From: a bacterium | GTDB lineage: Bacteria > Electryoneota > Electryoneia > Electryoneales > Electryoneaceae | DNA length: 64,000 bases | Assembly: GCA_963675295.2 (NCBI GenBank) | Contig: CAXXKJ010000002.1 | Location: 3,488,001-3,552,000 of the forward strand | Direction: 5' to 3' | Part shown: in pieces, positions 1,843 through 33,887 of the stretch | Position numbering within the stretch: position 1 is the first letter of the stretch | Layout: every line of letters begins with the position of its first letter | Made by a program: the position numbers and the translations under genes | Notes under the pieces: model-generated | The model's input: only the letters and a program-made list of their open reading frames with translations | Database searches by the model: none | What the model was told of the DNA's origin: nothing

Positions 1843-3315
1843 TTACACCTGCCGTCTCAGGCGTTTGACGGGGATGTTGAGTTGTTCGCGGTATTTCTGG
1901 ACGGTGCGGCGGGCGATCTCGTAGCCGAATGTCTTCAGCTGGTCGGCGATGGCCTGGTCGCTGAGCGGCTTCTTTTTGTTTTCGGCGGCGATGATTTCCT
2001 TTAGCTTTTCCTTGATCGCGCGGGTGGAGACGTCGTCGCCGGACTCGGTGGTCATCTTGTCGTTGAAGAAGAACTTCAGTTCACGGACGCCGTACGGAGT
2101 CTGAACGTATTTCTCGCGGCTGACACGGCTGATGGTGGAGATATCCATGCTGATATCTTCGGCGATATCCTGCAGGATCATCGGCTTGAGGTCGGCGTCC
2201 CGGCCGGTCAGGAACCACGGTTTCTGGCGTTCGACAATCGCACGCATGGTGCGCAGCATGGTGGTCCGGCGCTGCATGATGGCGTTAATGAACCAGCGTG
2301 CGCTCTCTGCCTTCCGCATCGCGAACTCACGCGCTTCCTTGTCGGAGTTACGCTTCAGGATCAGCTTTTTCAGCTCGTCGTTGACGTAGAAGCTGGGGAT
2401 GTTGCCATCGTTCAGCATGACGGCGAATTCGGGTTCCTCGTCCTCGTCGTGCTGGATGATTTCGACGACAAGGTCCGGGAGGATGTAGTTCGTCTTCTCG
2501 TCAATGACACCCTCGCCCGGACGTGGGTTGAGCGTGGCGATCACCTCGAACGCGCTTTGCACTTCCTGCGGGGTGATCCCGAGCGCGGAAGCGATTGGTT
2601 CGAAGCGGCGGTTGACGAATTCGTCGAAATGGTCGCGGAGGATCAAGTACGCGGGCTCATTCTGCTTTTTCCGCACCTCGAGCTGGATCAGCAGGCATTC
2701 GCGCAGGTCGCGTGCGGCGACACCGGCGGGCTCGTACCGTTGGACGGCGTGCAGGACCGTTTCCACTTCCTCGCGTGAGGATTCGGTGAGGCCGGCGATC
2801 AGGTCGAGCGGAGCGTCCAGGTAGCCGCGCACATCGAGGCTGCCGATGATGTATTCGCCGATCAGCATCTGCTTGTCGGTAAAATGGTCCATCCGCAGCT
2901 GTTCGATCAGGTCTTCGCCGAGGGTCTGAACGTCGGCCTGCGGGATCTCGACCGCTTCGGCGAGGGATTGGTTCGACTTGTACATCCGGCGGTCGTCCGC
3001 GCGGGCGTCTTCCTGATCGTCAAAGAACGCCTCCCAGTCAGGTTCGCGTTCCTCGGACTCGGCTTCCTTCGCTTCACGATCCTCAGACTCTTCCCGGGCT
3101 TCCTTGACCGCGCTCGACTCGAGGGTCTCCCCTTCCGGCTGGACCTGGTCCATTTCCCGTTCATCGGCGATTTCAAGCAGCGGATTCTGCTCGAACTCCT
3201 GCTGGAAGCGGGCTTCCAGTTGAAGCAGCGGGGTCTGGATAAGCTCCGACCGCAGAATCTGCTGCGGCTGGGCGACCATCTCCTGCTTGAGGCCGATGAC
3301 TTGGGAAAGTTGCAC
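1843..3315 (-). CDS. rpoN: RNA polymerase sigma-54 factor
   Basis: RpoN box ARRTVQKYREQLNIP; HTH region DIAEDISMDISTISRV; downstream of lptB. Confidence 0.97.
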   Translation of the reverse strand: MQLSQVIGLKQEMVAQPQQILRSELIQTPLLQLEARFQQEFEQNPLLEIADEREMDQVQPEGETLESSAVKEAREESEDREAKEAESEEREPDWEAFFDDQEDARADDRRMYKSNQSLAEAVEIPQADVQTLGEDLIEQLRMDHFTDKQMLIGEYIIGSLDVRGYLDAPLDLIAGLTESSREEVETVLHAVQRYEPAGVAARDLRECLLIQLEVRKKQNEPAYLILRDHFDEFVNRRFEPIASALGITPQEVQSAFEVIATLNPRPGEGVIDEKTNYILPDLVVEIIQHDEDEEPEFAVMLNDGNIPSFYVNDELKKLILKRNSDKEAREFAMRKAESARWFINAIMQRRTTMLRTMRAIVERQKPWFLTGRDADLKPMILQDIAEDISMDISTISRVSREKYVQTPYGVRELKFFFNDKMTTESGDDVSTRAIKEKLKEIIAAENKKKPLSDQAIADQLKTFGYEIARRTVQKYREQLNIPVKRLRRQV

Positions 3316-3319
3316 TCGC

Positions 3320-3600
3320 TAGTCCTGAGTTATGAGTCCTGAGTCTTGAGTCACTGACAGTTCAGCTGTGAGCTGTGAGCTCAAAATAAACTGCCAACAC
3401 CTAAATCCTTCAGTTCGTTCCGGATGACACCTTAAAACCAGTTGTGAGTGATGAGTTATGAGTTTTGAGTCAAAGACAATTGACAACCGATCACTGATCC
3501 CCGGTCATTGATCACTGACTACCGGCACTGCTGATCAGACTGCTAGAGTTGATGTGTGTCTTTTGAGCCCTGAGCCCCAAGCCCAGAGCCCGTGTTCTAC
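3320..3600. repeat. Degenerate heptamer tandem arrays in the lptB-rpoN spacer
   Basis: GTCCTGA/GTTATGA/GTCTTGA, AGCTGTG, CACTGAT and GAGCCC(T/C/A)-type 7-mers. Confidence 0.75.
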
Positions 3601-3664
3601 ACTGACAGTAATATAACACATTCTCGGAGAATTATAACTATCTATTCTCCGTTTTAAGGTACGG

Positions 3665-4429
3665 CTACGCCTGGGCCCGTTTCAGTTCAAATGTCTCGCC
3701 GAGGTAGAGTTTCCGGGCCTCGGGGTCGACCGCCAGTTCCTCGCTGGACCCTGACTTGAGGATGCGTCCCTCGTACAGCAGGTAGGCGCGGTCGGTGATT
3801 GCCAGAGTTTCGTGCACGTTGTGGTCGGTGATCAGCACTCCGATCCCGCGTTTGACCAGGTTGCGCACGATGTCCTGAATGTCCGCGACGGCGATCGGGT
3901 CGATCCCGGCGAACGGTTCATCCAGCAGGATGAATTTGGGATCGGTAACGAGGCAGCGGGCGATTTCGGTACGCCGCCGTTCTCCGCCGGACAGGTTGAA
4001 CGCCTTGCTCTTGCGGATGTGCGTGATCGACAGTTCTTCCAGCAGGCGTTCGACAATCTCGCGGCGTTCCGACCGGCTGGCGGGCATGGTCTGTGCGATC
4101 GCCATCAGGTTGTCCTCGACGCTCAGTTTGCGGAAGACGCTGGCCTCCTGCGCGAGATAGCCGATGCCCATGCGTGCCCGCTGGAACATCTTCATCCGCG
4201 TGATATCCTTGTCGTCGAAGAGGATGCGGCCCTCGTTGGGCTGGATCATACCGACGGTCATGTAGAAGGATGTGGTCTTGCCGGCGCCGTTCGGGCCGAG
4301 CAGTCCGACGATCTCCTCCTGCTGAACCTCGATGGTGACATTATTGACCACCGTCCGGCGTCCGTACCGCTTGACGAGGTTCTCCGCCCGCAGACGGCTT
4401 CGTGTTGTACCCTGTTTATGGTCGTTCAT
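3665..4429 (-). CDS. lptB: LPS export ABC transporter ATP-binding protein
   Basis: [39 protein letters not shown]; start placed at ATG 4429. Confidence 0.96.
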
Positions 4430-25239: not shown

Positions 25240-25466
25240 AACCACGGAATACACGGAAAAGCAACTGACGTCCACGAAAACCGCGAAAATGAAACGAAAA
25301 AACAAAAGAAACATCTTTATGAATAAATCATAATGGATCGAATTATGCAGCATTATTTATATTTATCATTATCTGTATTATCAATTATTATAGGTTGTTT
25401 TCGCTTATTTTCGTGCATTTTGTGGACTATCATCTTTTTTCCGTTTATTCCGAGTATTCCGTGGTT
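25240..25466. repeat. Nested imperfect inverted repeat around an AT-rich core
   Basis: AACCACGGAATACACGGAA / TTCCGAGTATTCCGTGGTT and inner GTCCACGAAA..GCGAAAAT / ATTTTCGT..TTTTGTGGAC. Confidence 0.7.
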
Positions 25467-25481
25467 GAGGAGAGGTATTTG

Positions 25482-26474
25482 ATGGCATACAAAACGCTTA
25501 TTCTCGGTGGAACGGGTTTCATCGGGCATCATATCGCGCGTGAGTTGCTCGCGAAGGGTCATACGGTCCGTGTGCTGGCGCGTGCGGGCGGCGACCGGTC
25601 GTTGCTCAAGGGGATGGATGTCGAGATCGTGGACGGCGACCTCAGCGACTCGTCCTCCCTGCTCGCGGCGCTGGAGGGCTGTGACGCGTTGATCCACGCC
25701 GCCGCGCACTACCCGGTGTGGTCGTTGGACGCCGACCGTGAGGCGGAACTCGGGCGTCAACAGATCCTGCGTGTGCACGAGGCGTTGGCGAAACATCCGG
25801 TCGAACGCTTTGTCTACGTTTCCGGGCCGGCTGCGGTCGGGCGCTATCCGGACGGGCGTCCGGCGGACGAAGACGCGCCGTGGCCGGAGGAACGCCGCAA
25901 GTCGGCGTATGCACGGGTGAAACGTGAGATGCAGGACCTGGTGCTGTACAACGCGCGGCGGACGAATGCGACGGTGGTTGTCCCGACCGGCACCTTCGGC
26001 CCGGGGGATCGCAAGCCGACGACCGGCCAGTTGATCGTGGACATCGCGGCCAACCGTGTGCCGGTGGCGTTGCACGGACGCACGAACGCGGTGTCGGTGT
26101 TCGCGGTGGCGGACGGTGTGCGGCGGACGTTGGAACAGGGCGCGGTCGGGCGGCTGTATGTGCTCGGGGACGAAAACCTGACGGTGCTCGAGCTGTGCAC
26201 ACGGATCGCGGATATCGTCGGCGTGCGCGCGCCACGGCTGGGCCTGTCGCCGGACATTCTGCGGCCGGTCGCGGTGATCGGGGAACACCTGGCGCGGCGG
26301 ATGCGGAAAGACCGTCCCGCGGTGCCCGTGGTCGGCCTCGACTTCGCGCTGTTCGGCACGCACCTCAGCAGCGACGTCGCGCGGAACGAACTGGGCTATG
26401 ATCCGTCGGCGTATCCGCTGGACGCGGCGCTGAAGGACGCGTGGGAGTGGTTCAAGGATCAGGAGATGGTGTAA
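25482..26474 (+). CDS. NAD-dependent epimerase/dehydratase (HpnA/dihydroflavonol reductase-like)
   Basis: GGTGFIG, HAAA, YARVK (YxxxK), FGPGDRKPT. Confidence 0.9.
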   Translation: MAYKTLILGGTGFIGHHIARELLAKGHTVRVLARAGGDRSLLKGMDVEIVDGDLSDSSSLLAALEGCDALIHAAAHYPVWSLDADREAELGRQQILRVHEALAKHPVERFVYVSGPAAVGRYPDGRPADEDAPWPEERRKSAYARVKREMQDLVLYNARRTNATVVVPTGTFGPGDRKPTTGQLIVDIAANRVPVALHGRTNAVSVFAVADGVRRTLEQGAVGRLYVLGDENLTVLELCTRIADIVGVRAPRLGLSPDILRPVAVIGEHLARRMRKDRPAVPVVGLDFALFGTHLSSDVARNELGYDPSAYPLDAALKDAWEWFKDQEMV

Positions 26475-26581
26475 GTTCATGGGTCGGTACAGGTTCAGGG
26501 ATTGGCCGGACCCGTTGCGCGGCGTCTCCGTTCCCCGGAACGGATTCTGCGTGGTAGCAGCGAATACAAGGGGGGATGATC

Positions 26582-26695
26582 ATGGCACAGCTGGTGATGT
26601 TAGGCGATTTCTTTCTGGGGCTGGGCGTTTTGCTGATCGGCCTCGCGGCGTTGTGGGGCGTGGCGGTGTGGAACGAAAAGGGGAAGAAGGGGTAG
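26582..26695 (+). CDS. Small single-TM protein (37 aa), below the ORF-track cutoff
   Basis: MAQLVMLGDFFLGLGVLLIGLAALWGVAVWNEKGKKG*; G-rich RBS 6 nt upstream. Confidence 0.55.
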   Translation: MAQLVMLGDFFLGLGVLLIGLAALWGVAVWNEKGKKG

Positions 26696-26763
26696 CACGT
26701 TTAGCTTTATATAAAACTAATATTATATAATATCTAAAAATACATTATCAATATAACCGGTTA

Positions 26764-27723
26764 TTAAAATTCGATGTATTGAAACAATTTTTGTTCAGAT
26801 TCTGGTAGCCGAGATATCAGTTTAACGTAATAACGCCGATTTATCGGCTTTATAAACGAAAGATACCCATATATTTTCATCCTCATCATTTTTTTGTCAT
26901 CAGTATCATTTTCTAACTTATTGTAGTGATATATCATTGATCGTATTGTACGGTATTTTCTCCTACCAACACTAACTTTATCATCATGTACTATTAAACC
27001 AGTTACTAATTTTCTCATTCCCGGCCCCATGATCCTTGTTTTCTCACTGTTTATTTTAAATTCTTCATCATTTACTATTTTTCCTACACCAATTCTTGCT
27101 TTACAAATCAGTTTTATATTATTTCCAGATATTGACATATCATCCGCGTATCTGCTATACGAAAGGCCTCTGGTTTTACAGTATCTATCTATTCTCTTAT
27201 CCATTATTTTAACTACTAAATTTGAAATCGCTGGTGATGTGGGAGCACCTTGAGGGAGCACTCCATTTCTTGTACAAAGTTTTGAAAGCATAAATGCAGC
27301 TTTATTACTGTATCCTAAATATCTGAATAGTAAGAATACGCGTTTTAAAGTAATACTGGGAAAAAAATCCTTTATATCAAGACATAATACAAATTTATTT
27401 CCCATATGAGCCTCTGCATTATCTATTATTGAGTATCCATATCTAAACCCTGTTGCATTATCGGGTAAATATATGCCAACTGGATCTAATACTCGTCTTA
27501 ATATCCATTTTTGTATCCCCTTCAACGTTGTTAATGGCGCATCTATGGCTCTATTTCCTCCGTTCTTTTTTTCAATATTAAAATGTATATAATATCTTGA
27601 TGAATCTTTAATAATATTAAATAATAAATATTTTGAAACACGTAATAAATAACTTAGCTCTTCCAAGGAATCGAAATCTGGAAGTTCCTCTACCTGGGCA
27701 ATATGTTCTGCAATCGGATCCAT
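26764..27723 (-). CDS. Retron-type reverse transcriptase
   Basis: YADD catalytic motif, LPQGAPTSPAISN, retron region X NAEAH (NAxxH), region Y VTGL; 319 aa. Confidence 0.95.
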   Translation of the reverse strand: MDPIAEHIAQVEELPDFDSLEELSYLLRVSKYLLFNIIKDSSRYYIHFNIEKKNGGNRAIDAPLTTLKGIQKWILRRVLDPVGIYLPDNATGFRYGYSIIDNAEAHMGNKFVLCLDIKDFFPSITLKRVFLLFRYLGYSNKAAFMLSKLCTRNGVLPQGAPTSPAISNLVVKIMDKRIDRYCKTRGLSYSRYADDMSISGNNIKLICKARIGVGKIVNDEEFKINSEKTRIMGPGMRKLVTGLIVHDDKVSVGRRKYRTIRSMIYHYNKLENDTDDKKMMRMKIYGYLSFIKPINRRYYVKLISRLPESEQKLFQYIEF

Positions 27724-27738
27724 GACTGTTTAAAAAAG

Positions 27739-27892
27739 GGATCGGAGTGAACTTTCCTAACTCTGAGAAATCCGTCAACTAAGCGACAGCCGAGCGAAGG
27801 CTGTCGCTTAGTTGAACGAGAGATGCTACATAACCTCATGGACGGCGCAACACCATCCGTAGTGTTCTAAGGAAGTGTAAACACTCCGATCC
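27739..27892 (-). ncRNA. Retron msr-msd non-coding RNA
   Basis: Perfect 11-bp a1/a2 repeats (GGATCGGAGTG at 27739-49, CACTCCGATCC at 27882-92); 17-bp msd stem 27775-27815; msr stem GGAUGGUG-UUG-CGCCGUCC; CCUUAG candidate branching G at 27867. Confidence 0.88.
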
Positions 27893-27899
27893 GCAGCCC

Positions 27900-28787
27900 T
27901 CAATAAGCATCTAGAATGTAGTTGCTTCGAATTAAATCAAAAGATGTAGAATGTTGTATTGTCTTTTTAACCAATCCTGACACAAAAGCATACCCTTGAC
28001 TTGTAATTTCATAATTATACCCCTGTACTTTTAAATACAAATCATTTATTAAAATATTTAACGATATAGGGATATTTTCATCTGCAACTTTTTGTGAATC
28101 AGGTATATTATGCAAATCAAGTAAGTATTTATACGCATCTATCAATATAGGTTCCGGAAACATATCAACAAATGAAGAGAAAAACAAGACAAAAAACTTT
28201 ATCTCAAGAGGATTTGATATAAAATCTTCTAATGATGTCTTCTTATCTCCAACAATTTTCCTTACTGCACTATGAATGTTTTTTATGATCTGCTTGCTGT
28301 ATTCATCGCTTAATATATTATCAAGATCATAGTATATAATTATGGAATCAGTATGTTTATCAAGATATCTAACGGGACCTTGCATTATAAAACTATTAGC
28401 ATTTTTGTATTGTTCATCAACTAAAACTATTAATTTATCTTTAAGTTTTTCATGATTTGTGAAGGATCCTAGCTCTGTAAAAGATCCAGGACTCTCTGGT
28501 ATGATTAAAACTGACTCCACACTTGACGCTAGTGTATTTTCTAATTCTAGTAGATTATATTTTTTACCTCTATATAGTAGATCTGTAAAAATATGTTCAG
28601 GATAATACACTTCTACATCAAAACCATATGCCTTTATTTCTAAAAGCCTATTTTTTATAATTTTTCTGATTGATTCTTGTTCATTAATGCTTTTACCAAC
28701 AATAAATAATTTTATCCTTTTTTCTATTAGGCTAGGATATATAAGGTCTAATGTATCCCTTGCTATATTTCGAGTCGTCGAATTCAT
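27900..28787 (-). CDS. Retron effector, NDT-like N-terminus plus wHTH-like C-terminus (Ec86/St85-like)
   Basis: YYPEHIF, NLLELENTLA, IIPESPGSFTELGSF, SFIMQGP; C-terminal YEITSQG; abuts the ncRNA. Confidence 0.85.
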   Translation of the reverse strand: MNSTTRNIARDTLDLIYPSLIEKRIKLFIVGKSINEQESIRKIIKNRLLEIKAYGFDVEVYYPEHIFTDLLYRGKKYNLLELENTLASSVESVLIIPESPGSFTELGSFTNHEKLKDKLIVLVDEQYKNANSFIMQGPVRYLDKHTDSIIIYYDLDNILSDEYSKQIIKNIHSAVRKIVGDKKTSLEDFISNPLEIKFFVLFFSSFVDMFPEPILIDAYKYLLDLHNIPDSQKVADENIPISLNILINDLYLKVQGYNYEITSQGYAFVSGLVKKTIQHSTSFDLIRSNYILDAY

Positions 28788-29072
28788 GTCTTTGGCTCAC
28801 TTTTCTTGCATCCATCCCGAAGAGGACTGACGTGAAAACGCTGACAAGAGGAACCTATGGTAAGATATGCTCAATTAGTCGAGAAATCAATACTCTGAAC
28901 TTTACTTATATAAACCTATCAGGAATAGTTTTCGAAGGCCCTTTACCTAGCCTTCATTTGATTTACATCGAATTGAACTTTTCCTCTCCTCGTGGCCTCT
29001 ACTGGTAGACGGGTGCATGGGACGTCGTGTGGGTCGGCGTGCCTGTGTGGATCTGAAGCTGGAGAGGAAACC

Positions 29073-30794
29073 ATGAAGCAACCACGTTTGAATCGCACAT
29101 CCAGGCCGCACAGGGCCAGTACGTCTGAGCCGCACAGAGCCAGTACGTCGAAGCCGCGCAAAGCCGGTACTTCAGTGCCGTATAAGTCCACCGTTACCGA
29201 ATCCGCGTTTGCGAGCAAACACGGCCACGTATCAATGCACGGGCGGCTGACCCGCACCAGCCAGCTGGTACGGGCACACACACCAAGGGCGTACAACCTC
29301 CTCGCGTCCGCGTCTGCAAGCAGACACGGCCACGTATCAATGCACGGGCGGCTGACCCGCACCAGCCAGCTGGTACGGGCACACACACCAAGGGCGTACA
29401 ACCTCCTCGCGTCCGCGTCTGCAAGCAGACACGGGCACGTATCTCACGGGCACATATCTCACGGGCACGTATCTCACGGGCACATATCTCACGGGCACGT
29501 ATCTCCCCGGAACATGCCTAGCGGATCAGCCGCGTTTGCAAGCAAACACGGGCACTTATTTATCCACCCCATCCTGACGATCGTGTTGCTGCTGATGCTG
29601 ATCGCGGCGATACCGGGCTGCACACCGCGTGCGTCCGAAGAGATTCCGCGGCCGGAGGAGATTGTAAGCAAGCGGGTGATCGTGTATGACCAGCCGACGT
29701 ACGACGACCTGTCGCAGAAGTGGTCGGCGTATTATGACGCGTTCCCGTCGGAATACGCGTACGCCAACTGGATGTACGCCGCGCGGTATGCGAAGTGGGA
29801 CGATTACGAGACGTTGCTGAAGCGTGGGCTCAGCCTCTACCCTGCCAACCCGACGTTGCTGTACCTGATGTCGATGACGTTCGGCAACGGGTCGGAGGAC
29901 GCGCTGGCGTACACCGAGCGTGCGATCTACCTCGATCCGGGGTATACCGACCCGTATTTCAACCTCGTCGGCGAGGCGATGGCACGTGGCGACGACGAAC
30001 GCACGCGGACGGCGTTGGCGAAACTGCTCGAGCAGGGCGCGGTGGACGACCTCGTGCTGGATTACGGTTACAACATGCTGGCGACGTTGCAGCCGGACGC
30101 GATCCTGATCACGAACGGCGACAATGATACGTACCCGTGCTGGATTCTGCAGCAGGAGCTGGGGATTCGCACGGATGTGAACGTGATCAACCGGTCGTTG
30201 CTGAACACGGCGTGGTACCCAGGGTATGTGATCGAGCGTGGCGCGCCGCCGTTCATTCCGTTGGGCGAGGTAGACGCGTTCCAGGCGGAACACAAGGCGG
30301 AGTCCGGCGATCAACTGATTCTGCGGATCGTTGATGCGGCGGAGAAGCAGGGCCGGCCGGTGTATTTCGCGGCGACGATGTATGAAACTCCCGCGATCCA
30401 GCCGTTGATGGAGGATGCGCCGTTGTTCGGGCTGTCGCTGCTGGTCAGCGATCCAGGGCGGGACACGGATATCGACGCTGAACGGGAACGAGCCGCGCGG
30501 GTTATTCTGGACGAGTATCGCACGCAGGCGTTGCAAAGTTGGCGGACCCGGTACGCGTCGAAAACGGTCGCGGCGGGAGTGTCGATCTCGCGGAATTATT
30601 TCTACGCGACGTACGATCTGGCGACACATCTGGACTCGCGTACCTTGCAGCGTGACCTGTTCTTCTGGAATCGGGACAACACGTTCGGGCTGTTCGACGC
30701 GACCTCGGAGGACAACATGAAACGGGCGTGGTGCCGGATCGAGGGAGTCCCGGAAATCCGGGCGTGGTGCGAAGGTGAAGGCTACGAGGAGTAG
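29073..30794 (+). CDS. TPR-like protein with DUF2723/TMEM260-like soluble domain; repeat-expanded N-terminus
   Basis: AILITNGDNDTYPCWILQ..GIRTDVNVINRSLLNTAWY motif; hydrophobic stretch ending IPGC; GGAGAGG RBS before ATG 29073 (alternative start 29514). Confidence 0.65.
   Translation: MKQPRLNRTSRPHRASTSEPHRASTSKPRKAGTSVPYKSTVTESAFASKHGHVSMHGRLTRTSQLVRAHTPRAYNLLASASASRHGHVSMHGRLTRTSQLVRAHTPRAYNLLASASASRHGHVSHGHISHGHVSHGHISHGHVSPRNMPSGSAAFASKHGHLFIHPILTIVLLLMLIAAIPGCTPRASEEIPRPEEIVSKRVIVYDQPTYDDLSQKWSAYYDAFPSEYAYANWMYAARYAKWDDYETLLKRGLSLYPANPTLLYLMSMTFGNGSEDALAYTERAIYLDPGYTDPYFNLVGEAMARGDDERTRTALAKLLEQGAVDDLVLDYGYNMLATLQPDAILITNGDNDTYPCWILQQELGIRTDVNVINRSLLNTAWYPGYVIERGAPPFIPLGEVDAFQAEHKAESGDQLILRIVDAAEKQGRPVYFAATMYETPAIQPLMEDAPLFGLSLLVSDPGRDTDIDAERERAARVILDEYRTQALQSWRTRYASKTVAAGVSISRNYFYATYDLATHLDSRTLQRDLFFWNRDNTFGLFDATSEDNMKRAWCRIEGVPEIRAWCEGEGYEE
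29104..29556. repeat. Compound repeat cluster: 24-bp x3, 105-bp period REP-like hairpins, 15-bp x5
   Basis: CCGCGTYTGCRAGCARACACGG at 29203, 29308, 29413, 29530; CACGGGCACRTATCT x5 at 29430-29504. Confidence 0.88.
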
Positions 30795-30796
30795 CC

Positions 30797-31345
30797 GTGG
30801 ACGACTGGACGCTGTACCGGCAGGCAAAACGTGGCAACGAGGCGGCGTGGCGGATGTTGATCGCGCGGCACGGGCCACGTCTGCTCAACCTGGTCGCGTT
30901 CACGACAGGATCGCCGGAAGCGGCGCAGGACGCGGTGCAGGAGGTGTTTCTCGATTTGTACAAGCGTCCGCCGAAGCATCAGAAAGGGAGCCTGGCGTCG
31001 TACCTGAGCACGGCGGCGTGGCGGCTGGCGTTGAAGGCGAAGAAACGGCACGCGCGGGTGGTGCGGTTGCAGGTGGACGAAGATCATGCCGGTGGGATTG
31101 AAGATGAACAACCGTCGGCGCTGGACACGGTGCTCAAGTCGGAGCGGGATGTGTACGTGATGCGGGCGATCAACCGTCTCGAAGACGATCTGCGTGATGT
31201 GGTGTTGCTGCGGTTTTACGGCGGGTTGGCGTACGACGCGATCGCACGGGAAGTGGGCGTGCCGTTGGGGACGGTGAAGTCGCGGCTGTTCCGGGCGGTT
31301 CGGCTGTGTGGTGAACAGTTGAAGCAGATCGGGTGGCTGGACTGA
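30797..31345 (+). CDS. ECF RNA polymerase sigma factor
   Basis: DAVQEVF; YDAIAREVGVPLGTVKSRLFRA. Confidence 0.93.
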   Translation: MDDWTLYRQAKRGNEAAWRMLIARHGPRLLNLVAFTTGSPEAAQDAVQEVFLDLYKRPPKHQKGSLASYLSTAAWRLALKAKKRHARVVRLQVDEDHAGGIEDEQPSALDTVLKSERDVYVMRAINRLEDDLRDVVLLRFYGGLAYDAIAREVGVPLGTVKSRLFRAVRLCGEQLKQIGWLD

Positions 31346-31577
31346 CAGGTGTGAGGTATGAGGTGTGAGGAACGGATGGCTGCGGATGATTCGCGGTAGT
31401 CTTCACTGTACTGCGGGCATCGGTCGGGGACGGAAAAGCCGCGATAGCCGTCGAAACAGACCGGCGGACAATCACGGGCACCGATCCACCAACCGCTGAC
31501 AGTACGAGAGACGAAGGACCAGAGACGAGAGACCAGTGGTGAGTTGTGAGTGATGAGGAACTGATCAGGATATAAAG

Positions 31578-31961
31578 ATGAATCACATTTCAGACGATCA
31601 GGTGCTGGCGTTTGTGCTCGGCACATTGGATGAGAAGGAACGCGCGCAAGTGGCGGAACATGTCACCGTTTGCAACGACTGCGCGGCGCGGGTTGAGGAA
31701 GCGCGGCGTGAAGTGAATGCGCTGGGCGGTGTGCAGACCGTGATTCCGGTGCCGGAAATACCGTTGCCGGTGAACCGTGGCACGGTGTGGCGGGAGATTG
31801 TGAAGGCGGCGGCGGTGCTGCTGGTCGGGTTCGCGATCGGGTGGGCCGTGACATCCCAGCGTGCGCCCGAGGTGGTGACCGTGGTGCCGTATGCGGTGAA
31901 CGCGTCCGCGCCGGTGGACAGCGGGCTGGTGGCGTCGGAGGCAGTGGATTTGCGGATCTAG
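31578..31961 (+). CDS. Zinc-finger (zf-HC2) anti-sigma factor
   Basis: HVTVCNDC (HxxxCxxC) followed by a TM helix; downstream of the ECF sigma. Confidence 0.85.
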   Translation: MNHISDDQVLAFVLGTLDEKERAQVAEHVTVCNDCAARVEEARREVNALGGVQTVIPVPEIPLPVNRGTVWREIVKAAAVLLVGFAIGWAVTSQRAPEVVTVVPYAVNASAPVDSGLVASEAVDLRI

Positions 31962-32133
31962 GCAGATGACTTGCTATTGAAATCGGACGAATTCTCGTGA
32001 ATCGTATCGAATTCTCACAGCGATGTACTCCATGATATGGCGTGTCTTTTTGTCTTGCTAACAAGTTGTATTTCTTGCCAGTTGGAGCTAATTTACATAG
32101 GTACTTACACAATCACCCAATCAAGAGGTCGAC

Positions 32134-33759
32134 ATGAAACACGTATGGTCGTTGCTACTCCTCCTTTTTCTCTGCTTCCCTTCCCTTGCTCAACCACCTG
32201 AGATCGCCTGGTCTGTCAACGTCGGTGTGGTCATGGAGAGTGTCCGTCCGATAGAACGGGAAGGAGTGATCTGTGCGGGCAGTGGACAACTGGTCCGTCT
32301 GGACGATGACGGAAACATTCTCTGGACTCACGATCTCGCGCTATCGCGCTCACTCGACATGGAAGTCTGCATGGACGGTGGTTTCATCATCGGTGGTAGT
32401 GCGATGGGTGGCGATAATGCAGGCCGGATCATCAAAACCGACCGGTTCGGAGAAGAAGAATGGCGTTATGATTATGATGGACTCTGGGGTGAATGGTTTT
32501 ATGAGGTGACTCAGAATGCGAACGGTAGCATTACAGCTTTGGTAAACGGCGAAAACTCTGCTCAATATGTATTTCGACCAGACGGGACGTTGATTACCAG
32601 TTATAGCACCAATAATCATTATATTAAATCTTATCAAAACTGTAATATTGTATTTAATTATTATAGAAACGATTATTATGGTGTTTACTATGATGATATT
32701 TGGAAAACAAGTTTTTACGGAAACTCCTGGACACACAGTTTCTCGTTCAGCAATGATTCAAGGTGTTATTCGGCGATACAGACGTCAAATTATCACATCA
32801 TTCTGGCTGTCCGCTACGATTCCGAGCAACAGCTGGTCGTGTTCAATCCATGGGGACAGGTTCTTCGCGAACATCCAATCACTGATTTTCCTGGAACCAT
32901 CTTTTGGATGCATGAGACAGCCGATCACAAGCTGGTCCTCGCCGGAAGTCGGTCCTATCCCACGCCGGCGACCATGTACATGATGAAAATTGACCAGAAC
33001 TATGAGGTGGAGTGGTCGACAAATCACGTATTTCAGGCCGGGACAACTATAGTGGCCGATTTCTGTGCGACGAGTGACGGTGGGTATGTATTCACCAATG
33101 GCACATCCATTCTCAAATACAGTCCTGAGTTGACGGTCAACATTTCGCCGGAGACGAACGTCGTGCCGTCGAGTGGCGGTACAATCGTCTATGATGTCAC
33201 GTTGAACAGCCGGTTGAACGACGAGGAAACACTCGACCTGTGGCTGCGGGTGTACGGCCAGCATCGCCGAGCACATGTCAGCCATCTCGGCGAGATGACG
33301 ATTGAACCGGGCACAGTGGAAACATACACGGATTCGGTATTGATTCCCGCCTCCCTGCTGGATGGGGAGTATTTCTGTCGTTTCCACGCCGGCAGTTTTG
33401 AACCGAAGATCGTGATGGGATCGAACCGATTTGCCTTCACGAAGGGCGGGTCGGGTGTTGCTTCAGACGATCAGCTTGAGGTGAAGGTTGACCTGCCGCG
33501 TGTGATGTCAGTGGAAAGTTATCCGAACCCGTTCAATGCGATGACGACAGTGCTTGTTGACTTGGCGCGACAAACGGATTTACGTGCTGAAGTGGTCAAC
33601 GTCATGGGGCAGCGGGTGGCGGTGCTCGCGGCTGGACGGTTCGAAGCGGGCGAGTACCGGTTCGAGTTCGATGGCACCGGGCTGAGCAGCGGGATTTACC
33701 TGGTGAATGTTCAGGCCGGACGTGAACGGATACAGCAGAAGGTCATGCTGCTGCGTTGA
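32134..33759 (+). CDS. Secreted propeller-like protein with T9SS/Por-type C-terminal domain
   Basis: Signal peptide; DGGFII/DGGYV repeats; SYPNPFNAMT...LSSGIYLV...QKVMLLR. Confidence 0.85.
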   Translation: MKHVWSLLLLLFLCFPSLAQPPEIAWSVNVGVVMESVRPIEREGVICAGSGQLVRLDDDGNILWTHDLALSRSLDMEVCMDGGFIIGGSAMGGDNAGRIIKTDRFGEEEWRYDYDGLWGEWFYEVTQNANGSITALVNGENSAQYVFRPDGTLITSYSTNNHYIKSYQNCNIVFNYYRNDYYGVYYDDIWKTSFYGNSWTHSFSFSNDSRCYSAIQTSNYHIILAVRYDSEQQLVVFNPWGQVLREHPITDFPGTIFWMHETADHKLVLAGSRSYPTPATMYMMKIDQNYEVEWSTNHVFQAGTTIVADFCATSDGGYVFTNGTSILKYSPELTVNISPETNVVPSSGGTIVYDVTLNSRLNDEETLDLWLRVYGQHRRAHVSHLGEMTIEPGTVETYTDSVLIPASLLDGEYFCRFHAGSFEPKIVMGSNRFAFTKGGSGVASDDQLEVKVDLPRVMSVESYPNPFNAMTTVLVDLARQTDLRAEVVNVMGQRVAVLAAGRFEAGEYRFEFDGTGLSSGIYLVNVQAGRERIQQKVMLLR

Positions 33760-33786
33760 GGTAATCCAACATCCTGCCGCTAACAC

Positions 33787-33832
33787 AAACACATCGGGGA
33801 TACCTGCATCCAGGTATCCCCGACGTGTTTTT
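33787..33832. terminator. Probable bidirectional terminator between convergent genes
   Basis: AAACACATCGGGGATACCTG-CATC-CAGGTATCCCCGACGTGTTT. Confidence 0.75.
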
Positions 33833-33887
33833 CTCAAGTCTCAAATCTCATGTTTCAAGACTTAAGACTCAGGACTCAGGACTGTTT

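Follow-up and report, generated by a model that had tools for sequence, protein, structure and literature searches.

An apparently intact type II-A3 retron of the Ec86 kind in a little-sampled bacterial phylum

Described type II-A retrons

In the retron Ec86 (Retron-Eco1) of Escherichia coli, reverse transcriptase (RT) and effector are a textbook binding pair with solved structures. The subject here is a relative of that retron in a genome assigned to the phylum Electryoneota (GenBank assembly GCA_963675295.2), on contig CAXXKJ010000002.1, of which the 64,000 nucleotides from 3,488,001 to 3,552,000 of the forward strand were analysed. This whole stretch is called the window below, and coordinates count from its first letter unless another locus is named. 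On the minus strand of an AT-rich island of ~2.3 kb the window has an open reading frame (ORF) of 295 aa, a 176-bp spacer and an RT ORF of 319 aa, and we are confident that together they make up an intact retron of type II-A3, of the same kind as Retron-Eco1/Ec86, probably acquired horizontally. An earlier note on this DNA had made the same identification, and it was right; the novelty that it saw in the layout rested on a wrong gene order for Ec86.

Ec86 is of type II-A3, called ‘Nuc_deoxy+Retron’ by Mestre et al. 2020 (PMC7736814). According to Wang et al. (10.1101/2023.08.16.553469), its RT, its multicopy single-stranded DNA (msDNA) and its effector assemble into a filament that stands ready to be activated, and methylation of CCTGG in the msDNA stem-loop by a phage Dcm leads to the depletion of adenine derivatives; the same authors name E106 as the active-site glutamate of the effector. 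The RTs of type II-A1 belong to clade 1 and the non-coding RNA (ncRNA) there is of type IA/IIA1 (PMC7736814, Table 1), and another paper places that ncRNA upstream of the effector, in the order msr-msd, orf, ret (PMC11701397). In the case of Retron-Sen2, Dam methylation of the msDNA frees RcaT, the effector, to tetramerise, and the RcaTs of the Eco1 clade are dimeric and non-toxic alone (10.64898/2026.10.13.758329).

The two proteins

The RT of the window (26764..27723, minus strand; 319 aa) carries NAEAH at N102-H106, YADD at Y192-D195 and VTG at V240-G242, and the translation thereby confirms the NAxxH, YADD and VTG motifs that had been reported for it. A PADLOC search, which the earlier note had suggested as a check, gives RT_II-A PDLC02941 as its best profile (3.9e-104, 346 bits) and retron RT profiles for all of the top 25 matches. 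The protein passes the curated cut-off of NCBIfam NF038233, retron_St85_RT (273.3 bits with the cut-off at 235), and it also matches Pfam RVT_1. The solved structure closest to it by sequence is that of the Ec86 RT, PDB 7v9u_A (8.8e-58), with 37% identity over 301 columns. Within a set of 77 RTs the best identity is 41%, to the RT of an Enterobacter locus, and the window's genome has one such RT.

The effector (27900..28787, minus strand; 295 aa) is an NDT-like (nucleoside deoxyribosyltransferase-like) and winged-helix protein of the RcaT family by the results from PADLOC, NCBIfam, PDB and an AlphaFold model. Its best PADLOC profile is NDT_II-A PDLC02930 (2.2e-60, covering profile positions 3-267 of 272), so that RT_II-A and NDT_II-A are the top profiles of the pair, and PDLC02941 and PDLC02930 are likewise the best profiles of the Ec86 proteins encoded in E. 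coli BL21(DE3). With 137.5 bits it passes NCBIfam NF038232 (“retron St85 family”, curated cut-off 100). By sequence the closest solved structure is again from Ec86, the effector chain 7v9x_C (7.6e-27), with 30% identity over 266 columns. The AlphaFold model has a predicted local distance difference test score (pLDDT) of 91.3 and a predicted template modelling score (pTM) of 0.87. When it was compared with 48,161 representative chains in a VIA-align wide search, 7v9x_C was also the top structural match (Z 13.6, root-mean-square deviation 2.0 over 112 residues, with the match extending across model residues 1-295), followed by TIR, MilB and 2′-deoxyribosyltransferase folds that match residues ~22-183. 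These matches by sequence and structure, to PDLC02930, NF038232 and 7v9x_C, agree with the type II-A NDT-like effector with a C-terminal DNA-binding domain proposed before.

The effector motif ESPGSFTELG, read from the translation, occupies E98-G107. Within it E105 aligns with the catalytic E106 of Ec86 and is invariant in 50 of the 50 sequences of the family alignment, which is made up of the window effector and 49 of the 150 HMMER matches listed, all near-full length. Ec86 D69 corresponds to T68 in the window, and the adjacent acidic residue is kept (D70 in Ec86, D69 in the window). On sequence, with 30-37% identity to Ec86, the locus adds a divergent member to a family already described. 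Both ORFs are intact and have their catalytic motifs, and the description of a complete retron with all three of its parts holds.

The msr-msd RNA

The spacer between the effector and RT ORFs (27724-27899, 176 bp) contains an msr-msd ncRNA gene (27739..27892, minus strand; 154 nt with a1 and a2 included), for which repeats, fold, alignment and covariation all speak. The outer arm of a1, GGATCGGAGTG (27882..27892, minus strand), is an 11-nt perfect complement of 27739-27749 and begins 7 nt past the effector stop codon (27900-27902), at just the distance previously noted between that stop and the ncRNA. The inner arm of a1, with TTA at its end (27868..27876, minus strand), has 27751-27760 as its partner, in a duplex interrupted by a T.T mismatch (27869/27759) and a single bulge. 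On the other side a2 (27739..27760, minus strand) consists of the inner arm 27751-27760 and the outer arm 27739-27749. The G of TTAG, at 27867 on the minus strand, is the predicted branching (priming) guanosine, a role assigned to it by analogy with Ec86, and all 44 of the aligned spacers have TTAG, that of Ec86 included. Further along the RNA are a conserved msr stem-loop, the GGATGGTG-TTGC-GCCGTCC region (27840..27858, minus strand), which is a consensus hairpin in RNAalifold, and the msd stem-loop (27775..27815, minus strand), the putative template of the msDNA hairpin. The latter has a perfect 17-bp stem (27775-27791 / 27799-27815) and a 7-nt loop, and its position is that of the Ec86 msd hairpin. 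By alignment to Ec86 the msd template would be of approximately 69 nt (27761..27829, minus strand), with ends placed to within a few nucleotides.

A 191-nt region around the spacer folds with −76.3 kcal/mol, compared with −51.5 +/− 4.1 for 200 shuffles, none of which equalled it (z = −6.0). The spacer alignment (n = 44) comprises the window, Ec86, a second E. coli locus and 41 of 76 genome loci, and as these 41 were picked for an evident TTAG and a1/a2 repeat, the set is a selected one. The spacers of the family have in common TTAG, a hairpin with the consensus GGRTGGTG-TTC-GCCAYCC and a GTAAG-like element before a2; the window carries TTAG, the hairpin and the element before a2, with GTTAG replacing GTAAG. 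Across the family 88% of the cells of the inner a1/a2 pairing (alignment columns 42-50 with 317-325) are paired, with compensatory changes at six of its nine pairs, and for the msr hairpin the corresponding values are 96.9% and, as recovered by RNAalifold, seven of eight. When the inner a1/a2 and the hairpin are specified together as a structure of 17 pairs, 92.3% of cells pair, as against 45-50% with the partners slid by one to three columns. Thirteen of these 17 pairs vary on both sides, and the covariation score is reached in none of 500 shuffles.

Gene order in Ec86 and its relatives

The earlier note gave the order of Ec86 as ncRNA-RT-effector, and regarded an effector-first layout with an internal ncRNA as unusual. 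Text searches of the literature returned no sentence giving the Ec86 gene order, and it was read from the genome record of E. coli BL21(DE3) (NC_012971.2, locus L090). The effector coding sequence (CDS) there is at 2324-3247 (307 aa, E = 1.2e-203 to 7v9x_C), and the RT lies 3′ of it on the same strand, with an annotated CDS at 3485-4372 and an ORF start candidate at 3410. Between the two genes are a1 at 3235-3246, overlapping the effector stop, the msd hairpin at 3322-3375 and a2 at 3392-3403. The record therefore shows effector, a1-msr-msd-a2, RT, and the order is identical in another retron of E. coli, the RT of which matches that of Ec86 at 2.9e-124.

Relatives were sought more widely with the effector. 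A HMMER protein search gave 1508 matches at E ≤ 0.001, a word-index protein search 3 relatives only, and a first scan of genome contigs with the single effector protein yielded no confirmed relatives. An alignment-based scan of one genome per species confirmed 279 loci, the best 80 of which were taken for comparison. In 76 of the 80 an RT lies 3′ of the effector on the same strand (tblastn), and a 77th locus (L079) has a partial RT at the contig end. Of the other three, one is on a contig that ends 283 nt past the effector match (L031), and two have no RT within 3.5 kb (L073 and L084). The gap between effector and RT in the 76 loci has a median of 189.5 nt and extremes of 100 and 456 nt, and in 67 of them it falls between 140 and 240 nt, as do the 176 nt of the window. 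The layout of the window, with effector, msr-msd and RT on one strand, is canonical for type II-A3. The reservation in the earlier note that effector-first layouts might already be catalogued was well placed, as the layout is the norm of the subtype (77/80), and effector homologues unlinked to retron RTs, which it had counted as a possible finding against the identification, are not the pattern seen, linkage being present at 77 of the 80 loci.

Composition and origin

The AT-rich island (26700..28990, no strand assigned) has the retron as its sole content and a GC content of 0.28-0.38 in the 500-nt steps from 26750 to 28999. The left flank has 0.67-0.68 at 25500-26499 and the right flank 0.62 at 29000-29499, and the host as a whole 60%. 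The ORF list and these GC values reproduce exactly the coordinates, the sizes and the AT-rich minus-strand island that had been described. Contigs from the Logan collection are available for four runs, all of which come from one study that is possibly the window's own source. In three of them (X1-X3, one sample) 25300-29248 is covered with 0 differences and at the depth of the flanks. In the fourth, X4, which comes from the study's second sample, the two junctions are spanned by separate contigs, the left one over 25665-27347 and the right one over 28684-29053, and the depth is 2.2-7.7 in the island and ~12 in the flanks, which AT bias may explain.

Among 79 genomes of the phylum, the NDT_II-A effector family occurs in one, the window's own (1 of 51 when high-quality genomes are counted). 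An RT_II-A-like RT is present in two of the 79 at E ≤ 1e-25, and the other of these best matches type VI. That one, L092 (G058:C8:5292-9152), is the only other retron-type RT found in the phylum (PADLOC RT_VI, 4.5e-68), and three ORFs that neighbour it are without PADLOC match. At the syntenic site of a genome of the same genus, G001, a 7.4-kb stretch that includes the retron (26484..33846, no strand assigned; blastn and tblastx against L008) is missing, with the flanks collinear and the flanking blocks only 88 bp apart. Because the effector is present in one of 79 phylum genomes and G001 lacks the region at its syntenic site, the element was most likely acquired horizontally, and the earlier proposal to this effect gains support from both observations. 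The missing stretch also includes genes of normal GC content, and borders specific to the retron are for this reason set by composition alone. In G002, G003 and G007 the epimerase gene alone was matched, and the borders of the insertion were not narrowed by them. No convincing direct or inverted repeats flank the element, the matches of 11-13 nt at its edges being of chance size for AT-rich DNA, and no integrase or transposase domain was found with Pfam in 11 neighbouring ORFs, nor was a target of tRNA type seen. PADLOC gave 0 hits among 17 neighbouring ORFs.

The genes for II-A3 RTs are AT-rich nearly whatever the host, those of the 76 relatives, which span many phyla, having a GC content of 0.25-0.53, mostly 0.29-0.37, with hosts that include Chloroflexota and Planctomycetota. 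Since low GC is thus typical of the family in any host, it gives no clue to a particular donor.

Alternative readings

Generic RVT_1 homology, and nothing more, would suit an RT of a non-retron kind, from a group II intron, a diversity-generating retroelement (DGR), an abortive infection (Abi) system or a defence-associated RT (DRT) system, with the neighbouring ORF present by chance. The 346 bits with the retron profile are to be set against 55 for group II intron RT/maturase and 22-40 for Drt2, Drt3a and Drt4, far under the cut-offs of those models. The motifs specific to retrons, the msr-msd and the joint occurrence of effector and RT in 77 of 80 loci tell against this reading too. With PADLOC, PDB and NCBIfam all favouring a retron RT, this reading was rejected as extremely improbable. 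Equally little credence is due to AT-rich DNA of another organism having been joined into a GC-rich contig, as a chimera of assembly or a contaminant. The abrupt fall in GC, by ~30 points, is what it has in its favour, but low GC is a trait of the family (0.25-0.53 in the RT genes of the 76 relatives, and 0.35 in E. coli), the depth is flank-like in three of the four runs, and, as the contigs of all four (two samples, one study) bridge both composition junctions with 0 differences, the island is not an artefact of this kind. A new retron architecture unlike that of Ec86, with the effector first and the ncRNA inside the operon, has behind it only the Ec86 order given in the earlier note; the annotation of BL21(DE3) with its repeats, the second E. 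coli locus, the 77 of 80 relatives ordered alike and the name given to II-A3 by Mestre et al. 2020 (PMC7736814) are all on the other side. It was rejected, the Ec86 locus of BL21(DE3) being itself effector-ncRNA-RT, and we see virtually no chance that it is correct.

Several results weigh against an intact Ec86-type retron. When 77 RTs were placed in a quick maximum-likelihood tree, that of the window came out as a long branch (1.33) on the outgroup side, a placement that the tool flagged as a possible long-branch artefact, and its basal position is not settled by the tree. A covariance model of the msr made from the 43 other spacers, with the window excluded, scores highest within the 64 kb at 27820-27876 on the minus strand, a full-length hit, but a weak one (21.3 bits, E = 0.1), and a genome-wide search with the model gave nothing at E ≤ 1. 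The low score is mainly due to the variable first msr stem-loop, which most relatives have in the spacer alignment and the window does not. The T.T mismatch is the second pair from the predicted branching G, a position unpaired in only 3 of 44 sequences, which makes the efficiency of priming uncertain. No Rfam family matches the window spacer at E ≤ 1, but the Ec86 ncRNA is likewise unmatched apart from a single chance miRNA match on its msd hairpin, and as Rfam misses even that RNA it is uninformative here. A scan for promoters of sigma-70 type found nothing upstream of the effector, with 9 sites in the region compared with 9.9 expected from shuffles, and the promoter and terminator scan of the region gave no terminator-like site. 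None of the sequencing runs listed is recorded as being of RNA.

Some of these results, namely the mismatch beside the branch site, the absent first msr stem-loop and the want of a promoter-like or terminator-like signal that stands out, are also what a decaying or inactive relic could show, one whose ORFs are intact while its ncRNA no longer primes or its cassette is silent in this host. AT-rich foreign DNA inside a host of 60% GC, and the depth of 2.2-7.7 in the island in run X4, below the ~12 of its flank, might be added, though the latter may be AT bias. However, neither ORF is truncated or lacks any of its catalytic motifs, the outer a1/a2 is perfect over 11 bp and the msd stem over 17 bp. 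The columns of the first msr stem-loop are also empty in five other aligned members of the family (L011, L014, L018, L034 and L036), with little in some others, and promoters of other than sigma-70 type are outside the scope of the scan. A relic is accordingly judged improbable, and the intact type II-A3 retron is the reading carried forward.

Possible activity and trigger

What follows on msDNA synthesis, complex formation, trigger and defence phenotype is by analogy with the work on Ec86 and Sen2. Transcription of the minus strand would yield a single RNA with both genes and the msr-msd between them, and the RT would bind the folded ncRNA and prime from the 2′-OH of the G of TTAG (27867) beside the a1/a2 duplex, and copying of ~70 nt of msd would give a hairpin msDNA. 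A complex of RT, msDNA and the NDT-like, winged-helix effector of the RcaT family may then restrain the effector until a phage product that alters the msDNA frees or activates it. Activity of the N-glycosidase type on nucleoside derivatives would in that event halt the replication of the phage.

Neither GATC nor CCWGG occurs in the predicted msd, nor does any of 13 other short palindromic motifs searched for. Because of this a different trigger is proposed: if the retron is active, what sets it off probably differs from the known methylation triggers, which is speculation. A more specific version has it as a streamlined retron of type II-A3, its msr minimal for want of the first stem-loop, with a bipartite a1/a2 and an msd of ~69 nt, that answers to another phage cue than the methylation of Eco1 and Sen2, and as the sole II-A retron among the 79 genomes of a sparsely sampled phylum. 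Taken as a whole this is a tentative proposal, possible but rather unlikely.

Neighbouring features

The 7.4 kb missing from G001 contain, besides the retron, a cluster of repeats like repetitive extragenic palindromic (REP) elements, a probable lipoprotein gene, an extracytoplasmic function (ECF) sigma and anti-sigma pair and the gene of a secreted protein with a sorting domain of the type IX secretion system (T9SS). Of the genes with Pfam domains, the ECF sigma gene is at 30797-31345, that of the zf-HC2 anti-sigma factor at 31578-31961 and that of the protein with the T9SS C-terminal sorting domain at 32134-33759. Also within the missing stretch is a GC-rich ORF of 39 codons at ~26578-26697 on the plus strand, which encodes the hydrophobic peptide MIMAQLVMLGDFFLGLGVLLIGLAALWGVAVWNEKGKKG and ends exactly at the start of the AT-rich island. 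The best sigma-70-like promoter of the region (26722-26751, minus strand; TTGATA-18-TATAAT, 11/12) is just 3′ of the RT stop and is directed out of the island.

The REP-like palindromic repeat, at 29105-29560, has a 24-nt core with the stem GTTTGC-AA-GCAAAC, and the three copies that adjoin the retron (29205-29228, 29415-29438 and 29532-29555) are within tandem repeats of 105, 24 and 15 nt. In the genome there are 63 copies at ≤ 2 mismatches (30 forward, 33 reverse) and 0 of a reversed-pattern control. Its variants retain the stem via compensatory changes, and related genomes have the repeat too, one of them with 7 tandem units of 65 nt. A 600-aa ORF at 28992-30794 on the plus strand, for which there is no Pfam match, has its first ~180 codons built of the REP-like repeats, and these are probably non-coding; a lipoprotein-like signal (…LLMLIAAIPGC) near 29560 suggests that the true start is near 29540.

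Comparison with known systems

The locus adds a divergent, compact retron of the Ec86 type from a little-sampled phylum, and it may be of modest use as a further scaffold for producing msDNA. It is also a data point for the movement of AT-rich II-A3 cassettes between very distant hosts. No new architecture or mechanism is revealed by it.

With Ec86, the Retron-Eco1 of E. coli B and BL21, it has in common the order of effector, msr-msd and RT and the top PADLOC profiles, an NDT-like and winged-helix effector in which the catalytic Glu is conserved, an RT with NAxxH, YADD and VTG, and an ncRNA in which a1 is at the effector stop and TTAG, the conserved hairpin of the msr and a long one in the msd are all present. 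It differs in that its proteins are only 37% (RT) and 30% (effector) identical to those of Ec86. Its a1 begins 7 nt after the stop codon, whereas a1 of Ec86 overlaps the stop, and its a1/a2 is bipartite, with 11 bp, an internal loop and ~8 bp. The first msr stem-loop is lacking, and the msd is of ~69 nt where the msDNA of Ec86 is presumably of 86 nt, as we take from its name. The msd is without CCWGG, the site of triggering in Ec86. In addition the two hosts belong to distant phyla, and the retron of the window does not lie within a P2-like prophage.

The likeness to the II-A1 retrons Retron-Sen2 (St85), Retron-Vch2 and Retron-Eco3 is in the effector family, RcaT or STM3845, and by analogy in the principle of a tripartite complex of the toxin-antitoxin kind. 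As differences, the Ec86-type profiles give the window proteins higher scores than the remaining NDT_II-A and RT_II-A profiles do, and the predicted msd is without GATC. Type III-A retrons have RTs that share clade 9 with those of II-A3, and RT_III-A is second-best for the RT of the window, at 288-294 bits compared with 346; their effectors, however, are like phosphoribosyltransferases (PRTases), whereas the effector of the window is NDT-like.

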